Shown here piece by piece: positions 34,348-45,923 of a DNA stretch of 64,000 nt. A program made the position numbers and the translations under genes. Numbering within the stretch: the first letter of the stretch is position 1; each line of letters begins with the position of its first letter. Source of the DNA: an uncultured Chloroflexia bacterium. Lineage in GTDB: Bacteria; Chloroflexota; Limnocylindria; Limnocylindrales; CSP1-4. The notes beneath the pieces are model-generated. The model searched no databases. It was given only the letters and a program-made list of their open reading frames with translations, and was not told the DNA's origin. The stretch spans positions 160,001 to 224,000 of the forward strand of contig CAVVCZ010000006.1 of assembly GCA_963746845.1 (NCBI GenBank), written 5' to 3'.

Positions 34348-35097
34348 CTACATCATCACGAGGCCGCCGTCGACGGCCAGCACCTGACCCGTGATGAACG
34401 CCGCTTCGTCGCTCGCGAGGAACGCGACGGCCGAGGCGATCTCCTCGGTCGTCCCGAACCGGCCGAGCGGCGTTCGCGACGTGATCTCGGCCTGGAGCGC
34501 CTCGGGCAGGTCCGCCGTGAGCTCGGTCAGGACGAAGCCGGGCGCGACGGCGTTGCAGGTGATCGAGCGCGAGGCCAGCTCCCGAGCCGTCGCCTTCGTG
34601 AGCCCGATCAGACCGGCCTTGGCCGATGAGTAGTTCGCCTGGCCCATCTGGCCGGCCTGGCCGCTGACGGAGGTGATGTTCACGATCCGGCCGCTCCGCG
34701 CCTTGAGCATCGGCCGCGTCACGGCCTTCGTCATGTAGAACGCGCCGAACAGGTTTGTTTCGAGGACCTCGCGGAACGCCTCGACCGACATCCGCATGAT
34801 CAGGTCGTCGCGGGTGATCCCGGCGTTGTTCACGAGGATGTCGACCTTGCCGAACGTGTCGACGACCTGCTTCACGACCCCCTCGGCCGCATCGGGATCC
34901 GTCGCGTTCGCCTGGATCGCCAGCGCCTGCCGGCCGAGCGCCGTGAGCTCGGCGGTACACGACGCGGCCGCTTCCTCGTTCCCGCGGTAGGTGAACGCAA
35001 CATCGGCGCCCTGGGTCGCGAGTCTGTTGGCGATCGCCCGGCCGATGCCTCGAGAGCCACCGGTGACGAGCGCGGTCTTTCCCGTCAGGTCGATCAC
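34348..35097 (-). CDS. fabG: 3-oxoacyl-ACP reductase
   Basis: TGGSRGIG, NNAGITRD, YSSAK; fab operon context. Confidence 0.95.
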   Translation of the reverse strand: MIDLTGKTALVTGGSRGIGRAIANRLATQGADVAFTYRGNEEAAASCTAELTALGRQALAIQANATDPDAAEGVVKQVVDTFGKVDILVNNAGITRDDLIMRMSVEAFREVLETNLFGAFYMTKAVTRPMLKARSGRIVNITSVSGQAGQMGQANYSSAKAGLIGLTKATARELASRSITCNAVAPGFVLTELTADLPEALQAEITSRTPLGRFGTTEEIASAVAFLASDEAAFITGQVLAVDGGLVMM

Positions 35098-36308
35098 GCG
35101 TGCACCTCTGTGGACGGGTGGGCCCGCTCCGGCTCGCCGGGCGCGACGTCGTCCAGCGGGACATCCAGCGATCCTGGCTGCCGCATCACCGCGGCGAGGG
35201 CGTCCGGGATCGGGTCGACGGAGTCCCAGTCGACCGGGAGCCGCACGGACACGTCCTCCGGCCGGACCGCCTCGTCCGCCGTGCGGCCGCGCGCCGGGTC
35301 CGCGGTCCACTTGATCGTCACCGCGCCGCTCGTGAAACCGGCTCCGAACGCCACGATCGTCACGTTGTCACCGACCTTCACGCAGCCCTCGTTGACCGCC
35401 TCGGCGAGGGCGATCGGCACGGACGCGGCCGACGTGTTCCCGTACCGATCGAGGTTGATGAACATCTTGTCCATCGGCAGGTCGAGGCCCTTCGCGACCG
35501 CCTCGATGATCCGGATGTTCGCCTGGTGGGGGATGAACAGGTCGACGTCCGCCGGCTCCAGCCCGGATCGGCGGATCGACTCGAGCGCGGTCGTCGCCAT
35601 CGTCTTCGTGGCGAACCGGTAGGTCTGGTTGCCCTCCATCCGGACGTAGTGCTCGCCCCGCCGGATCGTCTCCGCGGACGGCGGCGCCTTCGACCCGCCG
35701 GCCGGCAGCCAGATCATGTAGGCGCCCTGCGGCTCGGTCGTCATCTCGATCCCGAGCGCGCCGCCCGGCTCGTCGCTCGCGCTCAGCACCACCGCGCCGG
35801 CCCCGTCGCCGAACAGGATGCAGGTGCTCCGGTCCGTGTAATCGAGGAACCGGGTGAGGAGCTCCGAGCCGATGACGAGGACGTGCTTCGCAAGGCCCGC
35901 CTGGATGTACGCCTGGGCGGTCGCGAAGCCGTAGACGAAGCCGGAGCAGGCGGCCATGACGTCGAACGCGGTCGCGCGGGTGTTGCCGATCGCCTCCTTG
36001 ACGAGCGCCGCGGTCGACGGCATCCAGTAGTCCGGCGTCAGGGTGGCGAGGAGGATCAGGTCGATGTCGTCCGGCTGGATCCCGGCGGTGTGGATCGCCC
36101 GCAGCCCGGCGACCGCGCCCATCGACGCCGTCGTCTCGTTCGCGGCGGCGACCCGGCGCTCGCGAATCCCGGTCCGCGTCCGGATCCACTCGTCGGAGGT
36201 GTCGACCATCTTCTCCAGGTCGGCGTTCGTCAGGACCTGGGCGGGGGCGTAGCGGCCCCAGCCGGTCACGTGGGCGCGTCGGGTGGCGGGAGCCGTGGCG
36301 TCGTTCAC
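35094..36308 (-). CDS. fabH: 3-oxoacyl-ACP synthase III
   Basis: AACSGF, FGDGAGA, PHQAN, GNTSAAS, FGAG. Confidence 0.95.
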   Translation of the reverse strand: MNDATAPATRRAHVTGWGRYAPAQVLTNADLEKMVDTSDEWIRTRTGIRERRVAAANETTASMGAVAGLRAIHTAGIQPDDIDLILLATLTPDYWMPSTAALVKEAIGNTRATAFDVMAACSGFVYGFATAQAYIQAGLAKHVLVIGSELLTRFLDYTDRSTCILFGDGAGAVVLSASDEPGGALGIEMTTEPQGAYMIWLPAGGSKAPPSAETIRRGEHYVRMEGNQTYRFATKTMATTALESIRRSGLEPADVDLFIPHQANIRIIEAVAKGLDLPMDKMFINLDRYGNTSAASVPIALAEAVNEGCVKVGDNVTIVAFGAGFTSGAVTIKWTADPARGRTADEAVRPEDVSVRLPVDWDSVDPIPDALAAVMRQPGSLDVPLDDVAPGEPERAHPSTEVHA

Positions 36309-36928
36309 AGGGGTTCCACCTCGATCAGCGGCTGCTTCGCCTTGACCAGGGCACCGTTCTCCGGCACGACCTTGACGACCCTCCCCGCGAGGTCGGACTT
36401 GATCTCGTTGAACAGCTTCATCGCCTCGATCAGGCCGATGACCTGGCCGACGGCGACCTCGCGGCCGACGGCGACGAACGCTGCGGAGCCCGGCGCCGGC
36501 GAGCCGTACCAGACGCCGGTCAGCGGCGCCTTCACGGACGGGCGGCTCGGAGGCTCGGTCGGGGCGGCTGACGACGACCCGTCGTCGGGCGCGGGGGCCG
36601 GTGACGTGCCTGCGGCTGGTGCCGCGCCCGCGCCCGTCGCGGCGGCCGGAGCCGCGGCGACCGCGACCGCCTTGCGCAGGACGAGCCGCGTGCCGCCGGC
36701 CTCGACGGCGAGCTCCGAGAGGTCGCTCCGGTCGAGGAGCGCCCCGAGCCGGTCGACGAGCGCCAGCAGGGAGGCGTCACCCGGATCCTGGGGCACGACG
36801 GCGACGTCCGCATCGGGCTCCGGCGGATCCGGCGGATCGGCGTCCGGGAGCGAGTCCGCGAGCGTATCCGCGCCGCCGGCCGCGAGGGCCTCCGGCTCGC
36901 CCGTCATGCCGTCCGTCAGTCCGTCCAT
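36305..36928 (-). CDS. accB: Biotin carboxyl carrier protein (biotinylatable)
   Basis: APLTGVWY..P.P; IEAMKLFNEI with intact biotinyl Lys; start could be 36907. Confidence 0.92.
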   Translation of the reverse strand: MDGLTDGMTGEPEALAAGGADTLADSLPDADPPDPPEPDADVAVVPQDPGDASLLALVDRLGALLDRSDLSELAVEAGGTRLVLRKAVAVAAAPAAATGAGAAPAAGTSPAPAPDDGSSSAAPTEPPSRPSVKAPLTGVWYGSPAPGSAAFVAVGREVAVGQVIGLIEAMKLFNEIKSDLAGRVVKVVPENGALVKAKQPLIEVEPL

Positions 36929-38199
36929 CGGCGGAAGATCAGCGCGGTGTTCTGGCCGCCGAACCCGAACGAGTTCGACAGGGCGATCGGGATGTCGTGA
37001 CGGCTCGCCACGTTCGGGGTCAGGTCCAGCCCCTCTCCCTCGGGGTCGACGTCGTGGAGGTTGACCGTCGGCGGGACGCAGCCCTCGCGCATCGTCTGGA
37101 TCGTGATGATCGCCTCGATCGCTCCTGCCGCGCCGAGCGTGTGCCCGATCATCGACTTGTTCGCGGTGATCGAGATCTCGCGCGCGTGCTCGCCGAAGAT
37201 CGTCTTGATCGCCTGCAGCTCGGCCTTGTCGCCCTCGGGCGTCGACGTCGCGTGGGCGTTGACGTGGGCGATGTCTCCCGGCTCGAGGCCGGCCTTCTCG
37301 AGCGCCCGCCGGGCCGCCCGGACCGCGCCGATCCCGCCGGGTGCCGGCAGCGTGATGTGCGACGCGTCCGCCGTCGCGCCGTAGCCGACGACCTCGGCCA
37401 GGATCTCGACGCCGCGGGCGCGGGCGTGGTCGAGCTCCTCGAGGATGAGGACGCCGCAGCCCTCACCGGGGACGAAGCCGTCGCGACCCTGGTCGAACGG
37501 CCGCGAGGCCCCCTCCGGGTCGTCGTTCCGGCGGGACAGCGCCCGCATGGAATCGAAGCCGCCCATCAGCGGCTCGAAGACGCCGGCCTCCGAGCCGCCG
37601 GCCAGCATCGTGTCGGCGTCGTTGCGGCGGATCGTCTCGAACGCCTCGCCGATCGCGTGGCCGCCGGTGGCGCACGCGGAGACAGTCGTGAAGTTCGGCC
37701 CGGTCATCCCGTAGTTGATCGCGATCTGCCCGGCCCCGATGTTCGGGATCCCCATCGGGATCAGGAACGGGCTGATCCGATCCGGCCCCCGCAGGGCGTT
37801 CGTCGTGATCCCCTCGACGAGCGTCCCGACCCCGCCGAGACCCGTCCCGAGGATCACCCCGGTCCGTTCGGCCTCGTCGCCCTCCATCCGCTCCGGCAGC
37901 GCGGCCTGGTCCATCGCCTGTCGCGCGGCGACGAGCCCGAACTGGATGTAGCGGTCGGTCCGCCGGATGTCCTTCCGGTCCATGACGCCCGACGCATCGA
38001 AGTCCTTGACCTCGCCGACGACCTGGGCCTTGAGGCGCGACGGGTCGAAGGCTGCGACCCGGGCGATCCCCGAGCGGCCGGCCACCATCCCCTGCCACGT
38101 GGACGCGACATCGTTGCCGAGCGCGGTGAGCATCCCGGTGCCGGTCACGACGACCCGGCGAGGGGTCGCCGGCCAGGCGCCGTTCGAGCGCGCGGTCAC
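36916..38199 (-). CDS. fabF: 3-oxoacyl-ACP synthase II
   Basis: RRVVVTG, SACATG, NAHATST, KSMIGHTLGAAG, NSFGFGG. Confidence 0.95.
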   Translation of the reverse strand: MTARSNGAWPATPRRVVVTGTGMLTALGNDVASTWQGMVAGRSGIARVAAFDPSRLKAQVVGEVKDFDASGVMDRKDIRRTDRYIQFGLVAARQAMDQAALPERMEGDEAERTGVILGTGLGGVGTLVEGITTNALRGPDRISPFLIPMGIPNIGAGQIAINYGMTGPNFTTVSACATGGHAIGEAFETIRRNDADTMLAGGSEAGVFEPLMGGFDSMRALSRRNDDPEGASRPFDQGRDGFVPGEGCGVLILEELDHARARGVEILAEVVGYGATADASHITLPAPGGIGAVRAARRALEKAGLEPGDIAHVNAHATSTPEGDKAELQAIKTIFGEHAREISITANKSMIGHTLGAAGAIEAIITIQTMREGCVPPTVNLHDVDPEGEGLDLTPNVASRHDIPIALSNSFGFGGQNTALIFRRWTD

Positions 38200-38942
38200 C
38201 GGACGAGCTTCCCGGTGCGGACGGTGGCCGCGCGGTACACGTCGCCGGCCAGCCCGCGGGCCGAGATCGCGTTCGAGACGGCCATCGTGTCGAATTCGGC
38301 GCGCCGGATCTCGGCGGTCACCTCGCGCCCGTCGATCTCGACCAGCGCCCATGAGGCGGTCGGGTCGCCGTCGAAGACGAGCCCGGCAGACCCGTCGTTG
38401 ACGATCAGCTTCCAGCCGAGGTCGCGGATCTCCGGGAGATGGGTGTGGCCGCAGCAGATCACCCGGGCGTCCGTCCGCGAGACGCGCTCGAGGACGACCG
38501 ACGGGTCGAGCTGGGTGTCGAACCCCTGGGTCTGCGAGCCGGGCGAGGCGTGACAGGCCAGGACCATCGTGTCGTCGAGGACCAGGCGGCGCTCGGACGG
38601 CAGGCGGCGCAGCCAGCCGATCCGCTCGTCACCGAGCGTGTCGTGGGCCCACTCGGCGGCCTCGCGGAAGGCATCCGGGACGCCGTCGGTCATCCACGGG
38701 AAGGCAGCCGAATAGTCGAAGTCGGCGACCGCCACGTCCGTGTTGCCCTGGACGATCGTCGCACCGGTCGCCTCCATCTCCCGGAGAGCGTCGACGACGC
38801 CCGCCGGATCCGGGCCCTGGAAGACGTGATCGCCGGCGATGACGACCGCGTCGGGTCGTTCCTTCTTCAGCGCGGCCCGGACGGCGGTCAGCGCCTCGAG
38901 GTTGCCGTGGACGTCCGAGAGGACCGCCAGGCGCGCGGTCAT
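38196..38942 (-). CDS. Calcineurin-like metallophosphoesterase
   Basis: SDVHGN, GD, GNTD, HASP, GHTH, NDGSAG; overlaps both fabZ and fabF. Confidence 0.88.
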   Translation of the reverse strand: MTARLAVLSDVHGNLEALTAVRAALKKERPDAVVIAGDHVFQGPDPAGVVDALREMEATGATIVQGNTDVAVADFDYSAAFPWMTDGVPDAFREAAEWAHDTLGDERIGWLRRLPSERRLVLDDTMVLACHASPGSQTQGFDTQLDPSVVLERVSRTDARVICCGHTHLPEIRDLGWKLIVNDGSAGLVFDGDPTASWALVEIDGREVTAEIRRAEFDTMAVSNAISARGLAGDVYRAATVRTGKLVR

Positions 38943-39457
38943 CGCAGCGCGCCTTCCGGCGGGATGATGAAGCTGAGCGTCGCCTCGCAGGCCGTCTCGC
39001 CGTCGACGCTCGCGACCGCCCGGCCCTTGCCGAACCGCGAGCCGAGCTTGTCCATCGTGACCTCGAGCCGGAGCACGTCGCCCGGCACGACGATCCGCTT
39101 GAAGCGGCACTCCTCGATCGCCGCGAACAGCCCGATCCGCGTCCCGAACCCCGGCTGCTGCGCGACGTAGACCGCCATCGTCTGGGCCAGCGCCTCGACC
39201 TGGAGGACGCCCGGCATCACCGGCATCCCTGGGAAGTGGCCCTGGAAGAACCACTCGGTCGCCGACACGCCCTTGATCCCGACGATCCGCTTCGCGTCCG
39301 GGTCGTACTCGACGATCCGGTCGACCATCAGGAACGGCCAGCGATGCGGGATGAGCGCCTGGATCTGGCTCGTCGTGAGGATGGTCCCGGGTGGGCCGGG
39401 CAGGCCGTCGGGCGGCGCGGACGAGGCGTCCGCGGGCGGCGTGGCGGTGTCGGTCAC
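38939..39457 (-). CDS. fabZ: 3-hydroxyacyl-ACP dehydratase
   Basis: IPHRWPFLMVD; FFQGHFPG.PVMPGVL.VEALAQ. Confidence 0.95.
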   Translation of the reverse strand: MTDTATPPADASSAPPDGLPGPPGTILTTSQIQALIPHRWPFLMVDRIVEYDPDAKRIVGIKGVSATEWFFQGHFPGMPVMPGVLQVEALAQTMAVYVAQQPGFGTRIGLFAAIEECRFKRIVVPGDVLRLEVTMDKLGSRFGKGRAVASVDGETACEATLSFIIPPEGALR

Positions 39458-39562: not shown

Positions 39563-40933
39563 TCACGACCGGGCCGCGGCCGCGAGGAACGCGGACGACC
39601 CGACCCGGTCGAGAAGGTTCGTCGTCATCCGGCCATCCAGGAAGGCCTCGCTCGAGAGGATCGCCTGGTGGATCGGGACGTTCGTCACGAGGCCCTCGAT
39701 GATCAGCTCGTTCAGGGCGACGCGGCCCCGCTCGATGGCCGCCTGGCGGTCCGCGCCCCACACGATGAGCTTGCCCAGGAGCGAATCGTAGAACGGCGGG
39801 ACCTCGTACCCGGCGAACAGGTGGGAGTCCATCCGGACGCCCGGCCCGCCCGGGGCGAGGTAGCGGTCCACGACGCCCGCCGCAGGCCGGAACTCGCGTT
39901 CGGGGTCCTCGGCGTTGATCCGGAACTCGATCGCGTGGCCGCGGACGATGACGTCGGCCTGGCTGAAGCCGAGCGGCTCCCCGGCGGCGATCCGGATCTG
40001 GGTCGCGACCAGGTCGATGCCGGTCAGCATCTCGGTCACCGGATGCTCGACCTGGATCCGGGAGTTGATCTCGATGAAGTAGAAGTTGCCGTCCCGATCG
40101 ACCAGGAACTCGAGCGTCCCGACGTTCTCGTAGCCGGCCGTCACGACCGCCCGGATCGCCTGGGTGCACAGGTCGTTCCGGGCCTCCGGGCCGAGGGCCG
40201 GGGTGGGGCCCTCCTCGAGGATCTTCTGATGGCGGCGCTGGACGCTGCAGTCGCGCTCGCCGAGATGGACTCCACGCCCGTACCGGTCGACCGCGACCTG
40301 GACCTCGACATGGCGGGTCTCGTCGAGCCACCGCTCCAGGTACAGCGAGTCGTCGCCGAATGCGGCGCGCGCCTCGGACCGGCAGACATTGAGCGACGCC
40401 TCGAGCTCGCGCGGCGTGCGGACCATCCGCATGCCCTTGCCACCGCCGCCGGCCGCGGGCTTGATGAGGACCGGATAGCCGATCCGCTCGCCCTCCTCGA
40501 GCGCGTGGGCATCGTCACGGAGGATCCCGTTGGAGCCCGGGATCGTCGGCAGGCCGAGCGAGCCGAGCAGCCGGCGGGTCAATTCCTTGTTCGAGAACCG
40601 CTCGAGGACGTTGGCCGGCGGGCCGACGAAGGTCAGGTCGTGGGCCCGGACGACCTCGGCGAAGCCCTCGTCCTCGGACAGGAAGCCGTAGCCCGGATGG
40701 ATCCCGTCGCAGCCCGTGACGATCGCCGCGCTGATCACCGCGGGTGCCGAGAGATACGACCGGCGGGCATCCGCGGGGCCGATGCAGATCGCCTCGTCGG
40801 CCAGCTGGACCGGGAGCGACTCGCGATCCGCCTCGCTGTAGGCGACGACCGCCTCGATCCCGAGGGTCCGGCAGGCGCGCAGGACGCGGAGGGCGATCTC
40901 GCCGCGGTTCGCGATCAGGATCTTGCGGAACAT
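39563..40933 (-). CDS. accC: Acetyl-CoA carboxylase, biotin carboxylase subunit
   Basis: KILIANRGEIA, HPGYGFLSE, GGGGKGM, ERDCSVQRRHQK, RIQVEHPVTE. Confidence 0.96.
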   Translation of the reverse strand: MFRKILIANRGEIALRVLRACRTLGIEAVVAYSEADRESLPVQLADEAICIGPADARRSYLSAPAVISAAIVTGCDGIHPGYGFLSEDEGFAEVVRAHDLTFVGPPANVLERFSNKELTRRLLGSLGLPTIPGSNGILRDDAHALEEGERIGYPVLIKPAAGGGGKGMRMVRTPRELEASLNVCRSEARAAFGDDSLYLERWLDETRHVEVQVAVDRYGRGVHLGERDCSVQRRHQKILEEGPTPALGPEARNDLCTQAIRAVVTAGYENVGTLEFLVDRDGNFYFIEINSRIQVEHPVTEMLTGIDLVATQIRIAAGEPLGFSQADVIVRGHAIEFRINAEDPEREFRPAAGVVDRYLAPGGPGVRMDSHLFAGYEVPPFYDSLLGKLIVWGADRQAAIERGRVALNELIIEGLVTNVPIHQAILSSEAFLDGRMTTNLLDRVGSSAFLAAAARS

Positions 40934-41667
40934 CAGGCCTCGCTCCGCTCGGCGGTCCGGCTCGCGTCCGCCGTCCGGGCGGTCAGCTCGATGACGACCA
41001 GCTCCTGGCCGTACTCGACCGCCTGGCCCGGCTCGACGAGCGTCGCCCCGACGATCCCGTCCGCCGGCGCGACGACCTCCTGGGCGATACCGAGCATGTC
41101 GACGGCGCCGAGCCGGTCTCCGGATCGGACGCGGGTGCCGGCCCGGGCCTCGGGACGCGGCTGGAAGACCCCGACCGCGGGCGAGGTCGCGATCGAGCGA
41201 TGTCCGTCGACGCCGTCGCCGGAGGCGCGACCCGTGGCGGACGCGGCCACCCCTCCGCCCGGCCCGCTGCCGTTGGTCGAGCCCGCGGCGACCGCCGCGG
41301 CAGCGCCGACCGGCCGGCTCTCGCGCCCGGTCCGGTGGCCCTCGAAGCCGCCCGGCGCGTGCCCGTGACCGGCGTGACCCGGGTGGGCCCGTGAGGCGCG
41401 GTCGGTGGTCCGGCGGTTGTGACCGGCGGCCCCGCCGGCCGGACGTCGCACGCGGATCGTCCAGTCGCCCTCGCCGACCTCGATCTCGCCCAGCCCGGTC
41501 GCGGCGAGCTTGGCGATCAGCGCGGGCACCAGGTCGTCGGCCAGCCGGTCGATCGCGGCGTGGTCGGCGAGACGGTCCGTGTCCGTGCGATCGGTCCGCG
41601 GGGTCGGGGTGGCCGCCGCCGGCTTCGCGGCAGATCGTGATCCGGTGGTGCGGCGTTCAGCAGTCAA
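40933..41667 (-). CDS. BCCP-like protein lacking the biotinylation lysine (BADC-like)
   Basis: BCCP-type N-terminus (LGEIEV) and C-terminal SPAVGVF...GDRLGAVDMLGIAQEVVAPADG...GQAVEYGQEL; EAMK replaced by DMLG; start uncertain. Confidence 0.8.
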   Translation of the reverse strand: MTAERRTTGSRSAAKPAAATPTPRTDRTDTDRLADHAAIDRLADDLVPALIAKLAATGLGEIEVGEGDWTIRVRRPAGGAAGHNRRTTDRASRAHPGHAGHGHAPGGFEGHRTGRESRPVGAAAAVAAGSTNGSGPGGGVAASATGRASGDGVDGHRSIATSPAVGVFQPRPEARAGTRVRSGDRLGAVDMLGIAQEVVAPADGIVGATLVEPGQAVEYGQELVVIELTARTADASRTAERSEA

Positions 41668-41672
41668 GCGGT

Positions 41673-42704
41673 TCAGACCTCGTCACGGGCCGGCAGCTCG
41701 TCGCGGCGGCCGGCGGGGATCGACGGGATGCCGGACCAGCGGCCCGAATCGAGCAGGTTGCGGAAGCGATCGGTCAGACCCGGCCGCTCCGGCTGGGGCG
41801 GTGGCGGAGCCTCGACCTCGCGGTAGGCACCGAGCGTGCGGAAGCGACGGTAGCGCGCTTCGACGAGCGCGTCGAGGGACAGCCGGCCGAGGCCGTCGAG
41901 CTGCTCGAGGATGACGGTCTTCAGCCGGCGGGCGGTCTCGGCAAGGTCCGTGTGGGCACCCTCTCCGGGCTCGGCGACGACGATATCGATCACGCCGAGC
42001 GCCTGCTGCTCGCGTGCGGTCATCCGCATCGCGACGGCGGCGGTCGCCGCCTCGTCCGCCGTGCGCCACAGGATCGATGCGCAGCCCTCCGGGCTGATCA
42101 CCGAGTAGACCGCGTTCTCGAGCGCGACGATCACGTCGCCGACCGCGATCGCGAGCGCCCCGCCGGAGCCGCCCTCGCCGGTGATCACGACGACGATCGG
42201 CGTCCGGAGCCGGCTCATCAGCCCGATCGAGCGGGCGATCGACTCGGCGATCCCGCGCTCCTCGGACTCGGGACCGGGGTGTGCTCCCGGCACGTCGACG
42301 AAGGTGACGATCGGCAGCCCGAACCGCTCTGCGAGCTCCATCACCCGCATCGCCTTGCGATAGCCCTCGGGATGGGGCATCCCGAAGTTGCGCCGGATGT
42401 TCTCGTCCGTGTCGGCGCCCTTCTGCTGGCCGATCACGACGACCCGCCGCTCGCCGATCCGGGCCAGCCCGGTCACGACCGCCTCGTCGTCGCCGAACAG
42501 GCGATCGCCGTGGAGCTCGATGAACTCGTCGGCCATCTCCCCGACCAGGTCGAGGATCCGCGGCCGGCGCAGGTTGCGGGCCAGCTGGACCCGGGCCCAG
42601 GTCTCGGCCTTCGGATCCGACGGGGCGACGGTCGGCGCCTCGGCGCCGTCGCGCACGGTCCCGTCCGGGACGTCGCGGTTGCGGCCCAGGATGCGGTCAA
42701 CCAT
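41673..42704 (-). CDS. accA: Acetyl-CoA carboxylase carboxyltransferase alpha
   Basis: ELHGDR, RNFGMPHPEGYRKA, GEGGSGGALA, YSVISPEGCASILW. Confidence 0.95.
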   Translation of the reverse strand: MVDRILGRNRDVPDGTVRDGAEAPTVAPSDPKAETWARVQLARNLRRPRILDLVGEMADEFIELHGDRLFGDDEAVVTGLARIGERRVVVIGQQKGADTDENIRRNFGMPHPEGYRKAMRVMELAERFGLPIVTFVDVPGAHPGPESEERGIAESIARSIGLMSRLRTPIVVVITGEGGSGGALAIAVGDVIVALENAVYSVISPEGCASILWRTADEAATAAVAMRMTAREQQALGVIDIVVAEPGEGAHTDLAETARRLKTVILEQLDGLGRLSLDALVEARYRRFRTLGAYREVEAPPPPQPERPGLTDRFRNLLDSGRWSGIPSIPAGRRDELPARDEV

Positions 42705-43905
42705 GGGGCACCTCGTCGGCCGTGGCGACGACCGGTTCGTCGATCCCGGCGGTGTCCGGCGCCGGCCCGTCGGCATCGTCGGCGGCGGTCGTCGTCTCCG
42801 GCTCGGGCGCGACGGGCTCCTGCGGCGTGTCGGCGGCCGCCTTGCGCGATCGGCCCTTCGGCTTCGTCGCGGCCGGCTCGGCCGGTGGCACGGGCTCGGT
42901 CGACGCCACCAGGGCGGACCGCGTCGTCGGCTCGCCCGCCCCGTTCCCGGCCGGGACATGCGCCGGCTCGGTTTCGCCGGGAAGGACGCGCTCGGCGAGG
43001 TTCGACAGGAACGAGAACGGCCGGAAATTCGGCAGCCCGATGACCTCCTGCTCTTCCGCGGTGGCCGCGCCGGTCTGGCGCGGGACGAGGAAGCGGAGCA
43101 GGTCGACGACCTCGTCGCGGAGCGCCGAGCGGTGGACGACGCGGTCGAGGAACCCGTGCTCGAACAGGAACTCGGAGCGCTGGAAGCCGGGCGGCAGCTC
43201 CTGGGCGATCGTCCCCGCGGAGACGCGCGCGCCCGCGAACCCGATCAGCGCGTTCGGCTCGGCGATGTTCACGTCGCCGAGGACCGCGAACGAGGCGAAG
43301 ACGCCGCCGGTGGTGGGGTCGGTGAGGACGCTGACGAACGGCACGCCGGCCGTCCGGAGCCGCTCCAGCGCCGCGACGCTCTTGGCGAGCTGCATGAGCG
43401 ACAGGGTCCCCTCCTGCATCCGCGCGCCGCCCGACGCCGAGACGACGACCAGGGGGATCCGTTCGGCGAGCGCGTGCTCCGCCGCCCGGGTGACCTTCTC
43501 GCCGACGACCGCGCCCATCGAGCCGCCCATGAACCCGAAGTCCATGACGCAGATCGCGACGGGCCGGCCGTCCATGAGGCCGATGCCCCAGACGGCCGCG
43601 TCGCGCATCCCGGTCGCCAGCTGGGCCGCGGCGATCCGGTCGGGGTACGTCTTCTGGTCGACGAAGCCGAGCGGGTCCTCCGATTCGAGCCCCGCATCGC
43701 GCTCGATGAACGAGCCGTGGTCGAGAAGGAGCGCCAGGCGGAGGTCGGCCGACAGGCGGAAATGGTGGCCGCACGACGGGCAGACCCGGAGCACCTTGTC
43801 GAGCTGCTTGTTGAAGAGCATCTCGTCACAGGACGGGCACTTCGTCCACAGGTCCGCCGGATAGGCGTCGCGGCGCGGCCGGAACGACGGCAGCTTGATC
43901 GGCAT
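42697..43905 (-). CDS. accD: Acetyl-CoA carboxylase carboxyltransferase beta
   Basis: WTKCPSC...CPSC Zn finger; FMGGSMG; SGGARMQEG; PTTGGV; FQRSEFL. Confidence 0.95.
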   Translation of the reverse strand: MPIKLPSFRPRRDAYPADLWTKCPSCDEMLFNKQLDKVLRVCPSCGHHFRLSADLRLALLLDHGSFIERDAGLESEDPLGFVDQKTYPDRIAAAQLATGMRDAAVWGIGLMDGRPVAICVMDFGFMGGSMGAVVGEKVTRAAEHALAERIPLVVVSASGGARMQEGTLSLMQLAKSVAALERLRTAGVPFVSVLTDPTTGGVFASFAVLGDVNIAEPNALIGFAGARVSAGTIAQELPPGFQRSEFLFEHGFLDRVVHRSALRDEVVDLLRFLVPRQTGAATAEEQEVIGLPNFRPFSFLSNLAERVLPGETEPAHVPAGNGAGEPTTRSALVASTEPVPPAEPAATKPKGRSRKAAADTPQEPVAPEPETTTAADDADGPAPDTAGIDEPVVATADEVPHG

Positions 43906-44471
43906 CAGTCGAGCCCCTGGCGCCGACCGGGTGTCGCCGGCAGCGTGCCGGCCCCGGGAGCGGCCAGCCGGACCGAGCGGGCGGCCCGTGCGGCACGGAC
44001 CATGGGCGGCGTCGACCGGCTCGGCCGGCCGCGGCGCCAGGCGACGATCGCCGCGCCGGCGATGGAGATCGCCGCCGAGGTCAGGGCACCGCCGATCAGC
44101 AGCGGCCGCGCGATCTCGTGCGTCGCGGGATCGCCATCCGGGACCTCGCCGGCGGGGTCAAGGCCGGATGACGGCATGCGGAACGGGACGACGCGACCCT
44201 CGGCGCCGACGGCGGCCGGGAGGCGCATCGCCACAGCGGCCTCGGCGAGCCGCGTCGCCAGCCGCTCCTCGAAGCGGAACGACGGATGGACGCGGACGAG
44301 GTCCCGGCGGAGACGGTCGGCCGCGATCCTGGCGGCCGGATCCAGCGCGGTCGTGGGGTCGTCCGTGCCGGCCCCTCCCGATCCGAGCAGGGATCCGGCA
44401 AGCAGCGCATCCAGGTAGAGGTCGGTGAGGAGCGCCTCGGCCATCGCTCCGTCGCGGTCGACGAGGCTCAT
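43905..44471 (-). CDS. Single-pass membrane protein, candidate anti-sigma factor
   Basis: Overlaps the ECF sigma stop (ATGA); helical N-terminus (PSFRFEERLATRL) then one TM. Confidence 0.65.
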   Translation of the reverse strand: MSLVDRDGAMAEALLTDLYLDALLAGSLLGSGGAGTDDPTTALDPAARIAADRLRRDLVRVHPSFRFEERLATRLAEAAVAMRLPAAVGAEGRVVPFRMPSSGLDPAGEVPDGDPATHEIARPLLIGGALTSAAISIAGAAIVAWRRGRPSRSTPPMVRAARAARSVRLAAPGAGTLPATPGRRQGLD

Positions 44472-45088
44472 TCCTTGGCGAGGTCGCGGGCCACCGCCCG
44501 CAGCGCCCGGTGGACGAGGACCCGGACCGCCCCCTCGGACCGTCCGAGGACGCCGGCGATCTCCGCGGTCGACATCTCGTCGACGAACCGGAGGACGAGC
44601 GCCTGGCGACGATCCGCGGGCAGCCGCCCGACGGCCCGCCACGCGGCGGCGGCCTCGTCGCGGGTCTCGATCCCGCCCGCGACATCCAGCGGGTCCGCGA
44701 TCATCGCGGCCGCCTCGATCGGGGCGACGGGGTGTCGGCGCCGGCTCCGTCGCTGGTTGGCGACGGAGTTCCGGGCAATCTGGAACAGCCAGACGCGGAA
44801 CGTGGAGGCGCCGTCCCCGTCGGCCGGCCGCGCCCGCTCCTCGAACTGCGGCAGGCCCGCGAGAGCGGCGAGGAACGTGCGCTCGGTTGCGTCCTCGGCC
44901 TCGTGGTGGTCGCCGAGCTCGTGATAGGCGTAGCTGTACACCTGGGCGAGATACCTGCGATACAGGGCGTCGAACCGCAGCGGGTCGCGCCTGGCCTCCT
45001 CGACGAGCGCCCGGTCGCGATCGAGATGGGCGACGCGCGCGGTCGAACCCGCGGCGGCCGTCCGACCCGGACGATCGGTGGCGCTCAC
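44468..45088 (-). CDS. ECF RNA polymerase sigma-70 factor
   Basis: Region 2 FDALYRRY...AEDAT..TF...FRVWLFQIARN; region 4 LP..RRQALVLRF..MSTAEIA..LGRSEGAVR; start GTG 45088 or ATG 45112. Confidence 0.92.
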   Translation of the reverse strand: MSATDRPGRTAAAGSTARVAHLDRDRALVEEARRDPLRFDALYRRYLAQVYSYAYHELGDHHEAEDATERTFLAALAGLPQFEERARPADGDGASTFRVWLFQIARNSVANQRRSRRRHPVAPIEAAAMIADPLDVAGGIETRDEAAAAWRAVGRLPADRRQALVLRFVDEMSTAEIAGVLGRSEGAVRVLVHRALRAVARDLAKE

Positions 45089-45094
45089 CCGTCC

Positions 45095-45121
45095 AAACAC
45101 CGGTCGCGCCATCGTGTTACA
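45095..45121 (-). promoter_or_regulatory. Putative ECF-type (autoregulatory) promoter
   Basis: Minus strand TGTAAC-N16-TGTT immediately upstream of the sigma GTG. Confidence 0.4.
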
Positions 45122-45923
45122 CCCGACCCTGGTTCGATGCGAACCGGAGATGGCGGATCTCGCCCGAGAACACGGCTCGCCGGCCCCGCCCGTCGTCGAC
45201 AAGGAGCGCCCCCGTCCGGTCATCCACGCCCACGGCATCGACGTCCTCGCGCCACCCGTCCGGAAGCTGGAGGACGACCCGACGCCCGGTCGTCACCTGG
45301 CGCGCGGCCCATGCCGTCGCATCGAACCGTCCGTCGCGCAGCTCGCGGACCCGGCCTTCGAGAGCGGAGAGGAAGGCGTCGAGGAGCGACCCGACGTCGA
45401 CCGGCCGGCCCGCGTTCGCGTCCATCAGCGAGGTCATCGCCCCGGCCAGATCCGGCGGGAAATCGGCCCGGCGCCAGTTCCCGTTCACCCCGATCCCGAC
45501 GATCACGTGCGGGTCGGTCGTCCCGAGGCCGACGGACTCGCCGAGCACGCCGGCGAGCTTGCGGACCGTCGCCCGATCCGCGATCACGAGGTCGTTCGGC
45601 CACTTCAGGCGGATCGTTCCCTCCGGCAGCCCGGCCGCCGCCTCCGCCGCCTCCGCCATCGCGAGGCCCACGACCGCCGGGAGCCGCCAGGCCAGGTCCG
45701 CGCCTAGCCAGCCCGGACGGAACCCGACGGACAGGAGCAGCGCCGCGCGCGGTGGCGCGACCCACGTCCGGCCCTCCCGGCCGCGGCCCGCCGTCTGCTC
45801 GGCCGTGACGGCCAGGCAGACCTCCGGCGTCCCGGCGGCCAGCCAGTCCCGGACGACGTCGTTCGTCGAGCCGACGCGCTCGAAGCGCTCGTGCCGGGAC
45901 AGGAACGGCGCGGTGACCGTCAC
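45117..45923 (-). CDS. birA: Biotin-protein ligase (monofunctional, no HTH)
   Basis: STND, QTAGRGREGRTW, LKWPND, KLAGVL, GIGVN. Confidence 0.93.
   Translation of the reverse strand: MTVTAPFLSRHERFERVGSTNDVVRDWLAAGTPEVCLAVTAEQTAGRGREGRTWVAPPRAALLLSVGFRPGWLGADLAWRLPAVVGLAMAEAAEAAAGLPEGTIRLKWPNDLVIADRATVRKLAGVLGESVGLGTTDPHVIVGIGVNGNWRRADFPPDLAGAMTSLMDANAGRPVDVGSLLDAFLSALEGRVRELRDGRFDATAWAARQVTTGRRVVLQLPDGWREDVDAVGVDDRTGALLVDDGRGRRAVFSGEIRHLRFASNQGRV

Follow-up and report, generated by a model that had tools for sequence, protein, structure and literature searches.

A lysine-less homolog of the biotin carboxyl carrier protein in the acetyl-CoA carboxylase operon of Limnocylindria-like Chloroflexota

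We describe a gene, X, whose product is a homolog of BCCP (biotin carboxyl carrier protein, encoded by accB) with Gly in place of the biotin-accepting Lys, and which we take, on balance, to be a non-catalytic subunit of acetyl-CoA carboxylase (ACC) that would bind the biotin carboxylase (BC) AccC and that resembles the BADC proteins of plants by convergence. The gene lies in a 64,000-nucleotide stretch of DNA from an uncultured soil bacterium of the Chloroflexota (contig CAVVCZ010000006.1 of GenBank assembly GCA_963746845.1, positions 160,001 to 224,000; hereafter the window), which has a G+C content of 70–75%. The minus strand of the window carries a fatty-acid synthesis cluster in the order accD, accA, X, accC, fabZ, a metallophosphoesterase gene, fabF, accB, fabH and fabG. 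The presence of a Lys-less BCCP-like gene between accA and accC, first pointed out in a first-pass annotation of the window, is confirmed by our analysis.

Architecture of X and the missing biotin site

The predicted X protein is built in three parts like a BCCP: a helix and a hairpin make up its N-terminal segment, and a flexible linker connects this to a C-terminal β-sandwich of the biotinyl type. AlphaFold2 predicts the linker (residues 82–153) to be disordered (predicted local distance difference test, pLDDT, below 50) and models the sandwich (residues 157–228) at pLDDT values of 95–98 with the barrel-sandwich fold of biotinyl domains. Foldseek searches with the predicted C-domain revealed BCCP biotinyl domains as its nearest structures, with a template modeling (TM) score of 0.83 and a root mean square deviation of 1.3 Å for 1BDO and a TM score of 0.86 for 4HR7_G, and a search of the ESM Atlas with the same domain returned generic biotin/lipoyl clusters only, with scores of at most 0.90. 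When a profile of 22 X orthologs was aligned with Escherichia coli BCCP (4HR7_B), both the N- and the C-terminal parts were matched (E 1.5e-22), starting at residue 27 of that chain. Leu192 and Gly193 of X fall beneath the Met-Lys of E. coli BCCP in this alignment, which bears out the earlier claim that the biotin-accepting Lys has been replaced by a Gly with the codon GGT.

The (A/V)-M-K-(M/L) hairpin that presents the biotinyl-Lys of AccB/BCCP proteins is absent from X. The only Lys residues of the protein are at positions 15 and 53, and none occurs across residues 156–244, in agreement with the earlier description of a Lys-free C-terminal domain. With Gly at the acceptor position and no Lys elsewhere in this domain, X is, judged by its sequence, not biotinylatable at the canonical site. 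It also lacks the thumb typical of ACC-type BCCPs: the alignment with E. coli BCCP leaves a gap of six residues here, and in the translations 28 residues separate the VG motif and the hairpin tip in X, versus 34 in the AccB of the window. The statement that the biotinyl fold and the N-terminal segment are retained therefore holds for the N-terminal module and the β-sandwich but not for the thumb.

Matches of X to curated family models are better than chance similarity but fall below the cut-offs, at 44.4 bits (E 2.4e-11; cut-off 115.2) for TIGR00531 (BCCP) and, by a slight margin, at 21.5 bits (cut-off 22.1) for Pfam Biotin_lipoyl (PF00364). BLASTP of X against the AccB of the window gave no significant match (E 1.6), so the homology between the two is detectable by profiles only. 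The ungapped alignment of X with AccB on which the first-pass annotation relied is present in the translations as a match of 22 residues, but the likeness of the two proteins comes through the profiles.

The linker contains a His-rich motif that is specific to f1, the family of the window's genome and one of the five families (f1–f5) of Limnocylindria-like Chloroflexota that make up what we call the class. Its fuller form reads S-R-x-Q/H-P-G-H-A-G-H-G-H-x-P-G-x-F-E-G-H-R, and it could serve in metal binding or pH sensing.

Conservation and origin of X

A word-indexed search in which 8000 candidates were scored yielded 2632 X homologs at E≤1e-3, the best 120 of which are referred to as close homologs (some are named Candidatus Limnocylindrales or Chloroflexota by their sources). 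An exhaustive search of the representatives of 50%-identity clusters yielded 1135 at the same threshold. The biotin site reads x-L-G in 120/120 close homologs and in 140 of the 150 best representatives, the other ten being fragments, and M-K occurs in none. The X gene was matched in 150 of 151 sampled class genomes, the single miss being a genome that is 76% complete, and all 47 distinct class genomes that were read, from all five families, encode the protein without the Lys. The site motif is V[DE][VM]LG in f1, f2 and f4 and [VI][QR]SLG in f3 and f5. The gene order is conserved as well: accA adjoins X at 24/24 loci and accC follows X, directly in f1 and f2 or past fabD in f3–f5, at 23 of the 24, the last locus stopping at a contig edge. 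Loci L015–L024 (f3, f4 and f5) are those with fabD inserted between X and accC; the fabD gene of the window's genome is located on a separate contig (C5:248350–249243).

Eleven columns are invariant across f1–f5 in a 22-sequence class-wide alignment (A1), namely V165, G166, G177, G183, L192, G193 and V217–Q221. The ratio of nonsynonymous to synonymous substitution rates (dN/dS, Nei-Gojobori) between X and a same-genus ortholog, more distant pairs being saturated, is low in the N-terminal module (0.09) and the C-domain (0.13) and higher in the linker (0.26), indicating purifying selection on the folded parts. All six f2 genomes, which measure 1.0–1.4 Mb, keep X (the gene was read in two of them), and f2 genomes retain the Lys-bearing accB along with it. 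An in-frame TAG in genome G116 falls upstream of the X gene, which is itself intact. Recent decay, named in the first-pass annotation as the outcome to be expected if most orthologs retained the Lys, is contradicted by the Lys-less state of all class orthologs read together with the low dN/dS.

Outside the class, a sample of 301 genomes from the phylum was searched with the X profile, and the best match was read in 34 non-class genomes that were picked to span 22 families rather than at random. Class members score 150–224 bits with this profile and other Chloroflexota at most 104 bits. The gene order (topA/aroQ)-pepP-efp-[BCCP]-xseA-xseB, with a gene in the BCCP slot, was found in nearly all 34 genomes (L077–L090, L107–L126); Bacillus also carries its accB in this neighborhood. 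The protein in the slot has EAMK in 13 genomes from nine families and lacks the Lys in the other 21, from 13 of the 22 families, where the motif is EVLG, DVLG, ETLG, EALG, EALN, QSLN, EALA, EALQ, ETLR, EVLN, EVLR, EVMM, QVVN, EAMG or EAMR. Lys-less BCCP homologs are thus not restricted to the acc operon. A search of the window's genome with one of these efp-linked Lys-less proteins, that of genome G295, hit X (38% identity, E 3e-12) and gave no match to AccB. In the latter genome pepP-efp and xseA are 3.2 kb apart (G000:C4:572645–578860) and tblastn found no BCCP-like gene between them.

A profile was also made from the Lys-less forms at the efp slot. Of its best 120 matches, automatic parsing classed 57 as Lys-less, a further one (EQLH) was recognized by eye and 62 carry the Lys. 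The six named Lys-less matches are all from Chloroflexota, two of them from Ktedonobacterales, an order that has cultured members. Remote matches of X in other phyla were considered as further Lys-less forms, in a survey that is systematic for Chloroflexota only. The eight that were read (two from Endomicrobium, one from Lachnospiraceae, two from Gemmatimonadota, one from Thermoleophilia and two unnamed) all have EAMK and were rejected.

The Lys-bearing AccB of the window, encoded 4 kb from X, has the hairpin EAMKLFNEI with the Lys at position 171. A Lys-bearing accB adjacent to fabF was found in the window and at all six class loci that extend this far, and an AccB query matched 32 of 33 class genomes. 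For genomes outside the class with a Lys-less slot protein, 14/14 second-site matches read (11 in genomes whose Lys-less copy was read and three in sister genomes of the same families) are a second BCCP with E[AT]MK[VIL]FN encoded beside fabF, and fabH flanks its other side in eight. Where the slot protein bears the Lys, the AccB query found nothing but the efp-linked copy in 12 of 13 genomes, G304 having three matches. When five of these Lys-bearing genomes were searched with TIGR00531, none of the additional matches that were read, which come from G304 and G312, had the fab-type signature. G304 has a further BCCP paralog with IEVMKLMH, ending GQAVDRGQPLF (L142, G304:C1:1682739–1686218), which lies 18 kb from the efp-linked accB and is not beside fabF within the locus.

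We constructed a phylogeny with IQ-TREE (LG+C20) from 47 rows, including two with long branches and two of odd composition. Read as unrooted, the tree separates all 20 Lys-bearing from all 27 Lys-less rows with a branch support of 96/87, so a single loss of the Lys is enough to explain the distribution. X sequences from f1, f2 and f4 cluster with efp-linked x-L-G forms of families f22 and f27 (90/90 and 94/89), the f3 and f5 forms join the base of the x-L-G clade with weak support (81/40), and the fab-type carriers form a clade of their own (97/93), which contains the AccB of the window (fab_K clade). The thumb has its full length of 34 residues in f22, f25 and f29 and is shorter in f27 (31 residues) and in the class (28), which suggests that the Lys was lost before the thumb shortened. 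The patches VG.F and VEYGQ.L are kept in X (16 rows), in the efp-linked Lys-less forms (20 real rows, to which the regular expression added one false hit), in the efp-linked Lys-bearing forms (13 rows) and in AccB of other phyla (7 rows). The 20 rows of fab-type carriers have APLTG, lack VEYGQ and keep the Lys hairpin E[AT]MK. Since tree, signature residues and synteny agree, these sequences indicate that X descends from the canonical accB and that the Lys-bearing AccB of the window is a divergent, fab-cluster type. The first-pass annotation was thus right to see a BCCP homolog in X, but in calling it a paralog of the true AccB it had the standing of the two genes reversed. An origin of X as a class-specific duplicate of the neighboring AccB was also considered and rejected, because X groups with the efp-linked Lys-less forms and shares VEYGQ with canonical AccB, and its neighbor belongs to the fab-type clade.

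Two contigs with typical X genes, L031 and L036, are filed under metagenome-assembled genomes of Candidatus Methylomirabilota and Candidatus Sulfotelmatobacter. X of L036 nests among Limnocylindria forms in the tree, and mis-binning seems more likely than transfer.

Proposed role in ACC and alternative explanations

The AccC–X complex, the modeling of which had been suggested in the first-pass annotation, was predicted from an alignment of 17 AccC sequences and one of 22 X sequences. The prediction scored 0.76 (0.78, 0.76 and 0.76 in the individual runs) and the best of three controls 0.00. Of 157 solved complexes 116 attain this mark, as do 2 of 215 mismatched pairs, counts that serve as a rough guide here because our own alignments were used. 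The pLDDT of the partner is at least 57 and the contacts agree between runs in at least 29%. Confidently predicted contacts on X are made by residues 164–167, 191–192, 194 and 216–221, so that 8 of the 11 invariant columns are among them, and those on AccC by residues 34, 49–53, 59, 64–73 and 98 of the N-terminal domain. The predicted complex is like the one already solved for the E. coli proteins (4HR7), and as a model it shows that X still resembles a BC-binding BCCP.

We propose that X, as a descendant of the canonical accB, would have lost the biotin-accepting Lys (Met-Lys to Leu-Gly) and most of the biotin-contacting thumb and kept both parts with which a BCCP contacts other proteins, the N-terminal helix-hairpin and the face that the VG.F, hairpin and VEYGQ patches make up on the C-domain. 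Produced from the same packed operon as AccD, AccA and AccC, it would bind AccC as a non-catalytic subunit. The role of swinging-arm carrier would have passed to the second BCCP, that of the fabF-accB-fabH arrangement, in which the Lys was kept and the VG.F and VEYGQ patches changed. The suggestion in the first-pass annotation that X is a regulatory or structural subunit of ACC gains from the conservation, the purifying selection and a complex prediction that passes its controls; the binding itself and the effect on activity are what we infer. Given that X is coupled to the operon and retained in genomes of 1.0–1.4 Mb, we favor a role as scaffold or assembly factor ('glue') rather than as inhibitor. 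More tentatively, across much of Chloroflexota the original accB may have become a biotin-free structural subunit of ACC while the fab-cluster BCCP carries the biotin, a split between docking and carrying that would amount to a BADC-type subunit invented independently of plants, with the His-rich motif perhaps adding control of assembly by pH or metal in the window's family.

Several points weigh against a role of X in ACC, or narrow it. The E. coli BC–BCCP complex has been solved, so the pass of the prediction may reflect likeness to that family rather than true binding by X, and the predicted AccC contacts fall on the C-domain of X only, none being reported for the N-terminal module. accC was found at the efp-xseA slot in none of the genomes read; as the Lys-less orthologs outside the class sit at this slot and not by acc genes, the operon linkage backs an ACC role in the class only. 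Beyond the L-G clade, different residues (G, N, A, Q, R, M) are found where the Lys would be, so this position is not under a common constraint. From sequence, moreover, a scaffold and an inhibitor are indistinguishable. Among the sequencing runs, no RNA run with the locus was listed, and the 20 DNA runs each contained at most 0.10 of the sampled words, a result that bears on neither expression nor habitat. Finally, the genome tallies include entries flagged as unpublished, which were counted with their sequences unread (G087, G096, G123, G091, G106, G112 and G067 in the class sample; G281, G354 and G393 in the phylum and AccB tallies).

The alternative that fares best, although we regard it as unlikely, is that X binds AccC as a competitive negative regulator, occupying BCCP sites without being carboxylated, with ACC flux set by the ratio of X to AccB. 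The evidence for BC binding (alignment, invariant columns and complex prediction) fits this explanation equally, and X and AccB are encoded in different transcription contexts (accD-accA-X-accC and fabF-accB-fabH), so that their ratio could vary. The His-rich linker motif of f1 might, speculatively, act as a pH or metal switch. For plant BADC, the passages cited record a proposal that they are inhibitors (PMC10440990, PMC11926652), but later plant work, as summarized in one of them, favors an assembly role (PMC11926652). The TGATG coupling of X to accC would imply a fixed proportion and better suits a stoichiometric subunit, and a gene retained in reduced genomes is more suggestive of a required component than of a brake that could be dispensed with.

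It is less probable still that X works outside ACC, lending its BCCP-like shape to another biotin-dependent carboxylase or an unrelated partner, with its position in the acc operon secondary. The 21 non-class genomes with a Lys-less ortholog away from acc genes are compatible with this, as are three further BC homologs in the window's genome (45–47% identity to AccC) and its six Biotin_lipoyl matches in total. However, the efp-xseA slot is the home of the Lys-bearing canonical accB in 13 other Chloroflexota genomes and is therefore uninformative about a new role, the class-wide move into accD-accA-X-accC points to ACC, and the other BC homologs, as far as relatives were read, lie in long open frames with a Lys-bearing biotinyl domain of their own.

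We consider it very improbable that X serves as a biotin-ligase decoy, a permanently 'apo' look-alike of BCCP that binds BirA and tunes biotinylation or the control of biotin operons. Apo-BCCP of E. coli competes with BirA dimerization, and birA is located 1.2 kb upstream of the operon, but the thumb and the hairpin tip around the Lys position are altered in X and its invariant residues map onto the predicted AccC contact. That X is a decaying, functionless copy of accB can practically be set aside, since the missing catalytic Lys, the partial loss of the thumb and the scores below the curated cut-offs are outweighed by intact frames, 11 columns invariant in five families, dN/dS values of 0.09–0.13, at least 1135 clusters at 50% identity and retention in reduced genomes.

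Known systems and the surrounding genes

Heteromeric ACC catalyzes the committed step of fatty-acid synthesis and is a target of antibiotics and herbicides. The BADC proteins, to our knowledge, are regarded as confined to plants and algae. According to the passages cited, plant BADC proteins are BCCP homologs without the AMKL biotinylation motif that are not biotinylated and bind BC and BCCP of the heteromeric enzyme, and they have been argued to act as inhibitors or as 'glue' for the BC–BCCP subcomplex (PMC11926652, PMC10440990). BC–BCCP assembly and the role of BADC in it are still debated, and a biotin-free bacterial BCCP, encoded in an operon and retained over a very long time, would offer a simple system for the question. 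X shares with the plastid BADC proteins (Arabidopsis BADC1–3) the BCCP ancestry, the loss of the biotinylation motif and the contact to BC, which is predicted for X; it differs in being encoded in an operon with accD, accA and accC and in being known here from sequence and prediction. Because X falls inside the Chloroflexota efp-linked accB lineage, in a tree built without BADC sequences, the likeness probably reflects convergence rather than common descent. The separation of docking from carrying in BCCP may then be a recurrent evolutionary solution.

With the canonical bacterial BCCP (E. coli, 1BDO, 4HR7) X has in common the three-part architecture, patches of the VG.F and VEYGQ type and the slot directly upstream of accC. 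It differs by Leu-Gly for Met-Lys, the shortened thumb and family scores below cut-off. A small non-catalytic subunit, as proposed for X, is also seen in the AccE/PccE epsilon subunits of actinobacterial acyl-CoA carboxylases. These are not known to be related to X by sequence or by fold, and their site of action is the carboxyltransferase side. The passage cited calls them 'glue' by which the holoenzyme is assembled and activated (PMC11926652). Within the phylum of X itself, the BC/BCCP part of ACC has been rearranged in Chloroflexus aurantiacus, where, in the passages cited, BC1 is a fused BC–BCCP whose BCCP hairpins form a β-barrel that ties BC dimers together (PMC11077971). Unlike X, BC1 and the free BCCP of Chloroflexus keep the Lys in EAMKM and are biotinylated, and these passages on Chloroflexus ACC describe Lys-bearing forms and no Lys-less one (PMC11077971). 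In a full-text search of open-access papers and bioRxiv, no bacterial BCCP without the Lys was found to have been described. In public sources the Lys-less proteins go under 'biotin carboxyl carrier protein' or the longer 'acetyl-CoA carboxylase biotin carboxyl carrier protein', an annotation trap in which pathway reconstructions may choose the wrong gene as the carrier.

The features of the locus are collected in Table 1. The four acc genes of the operon are closely spaced. accA probably starts at an ATG at 42704 that overlaps the end of accD. X starts at a TTG 5 nt past the stop of accA, a GAGG lies 10 nt upstream of this TTG, and the stop of X overlaps the ATG of accC in TGATG, as had been noted.

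Table 1 Features of X and of the surrounding locus (window coordinates; residue numbers are those of X unless stated)
Feature	Position	Strand	Evidence
X, BCCP homolog without biotinyl-Lys, 244 aa, TTG start	40933..41667	−	Open reading frame (ORF) and family/profile matches
N-terminal BCCP-type module, residues 29–74 (helix 29–57, β-hairpin 61–74)	41446..41583	−	AlphaFold2 pLDDT 88–92; alignment to E. coli BCCP
His-rich linker motif (PGHxGHxH ... FEGHR), residues 90–112	41332..41400	−	110/120 close homologs, 16/150 representatives
C-terminal biotinyl-type β-sandwich without Lys, residues 156–230, thumb 6 residues shorter	40978..41202	−	pLDDT 95–98; Foldseek
Gly193 codon GGT at the biotinyl-Lys position; Leu192 in place of Met	41089..41091	−	Alignment to E. 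coli BCCP
accC, biotin carboxylase	39563..40933	−	Pfam Biotin_carb_N, CPSase_L_D2, Biotin_carb_C
accA, carboxyltransferase alpha	41673..42704	−	Pfam ACCA 2.7e-113; GAGG upstream of start
accD, carboxyltransferase beta with zinc ribbon	42697..43905	−	Pfam Carboxyl_trans, Zn_ribbon_ACC
fabZ	38939–39457	−
Metallophosphoesterase (calcineurin-like)	within ORF 38196–39254	−
fabF	within ORF 36916–38352	−
accB, Lys-bearing BCCP of fab-cluster type, between fabF and fabH	36305..36928	−	PF00364 49 bits, TIGR00531 103 bits
Lys171 codon of AccB	36416–36418	−
fabH	35094–36308	−
fabG	within ORF 34348–35310	−
birA, biotin-protein ligase	45117..45923	−	TIGR00121 120.5 bits, above cut-off; Pfam BPL_LplA_LipB
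Extracytoplasmic function (ECF)-type sigma factor	44468–45238	−	Sigma70_r2/r4
245-aa ORF	43905–44642	−	No Pfam match

birA, the sole TIGR00121 match in the genome, is the genome's only biotin-protein ligase gene, and its distance of 1.2 kb is measured to accD; the sigma factor gene and the 245-aa ORF lie between the two. An aspartokinase gene is found farther upstream than the birA region. The metallophosphoesterase gene between fabZ and fabF is shared by the window and the f2 loci (L013, L014) and is absent from this place in the f4 loci.

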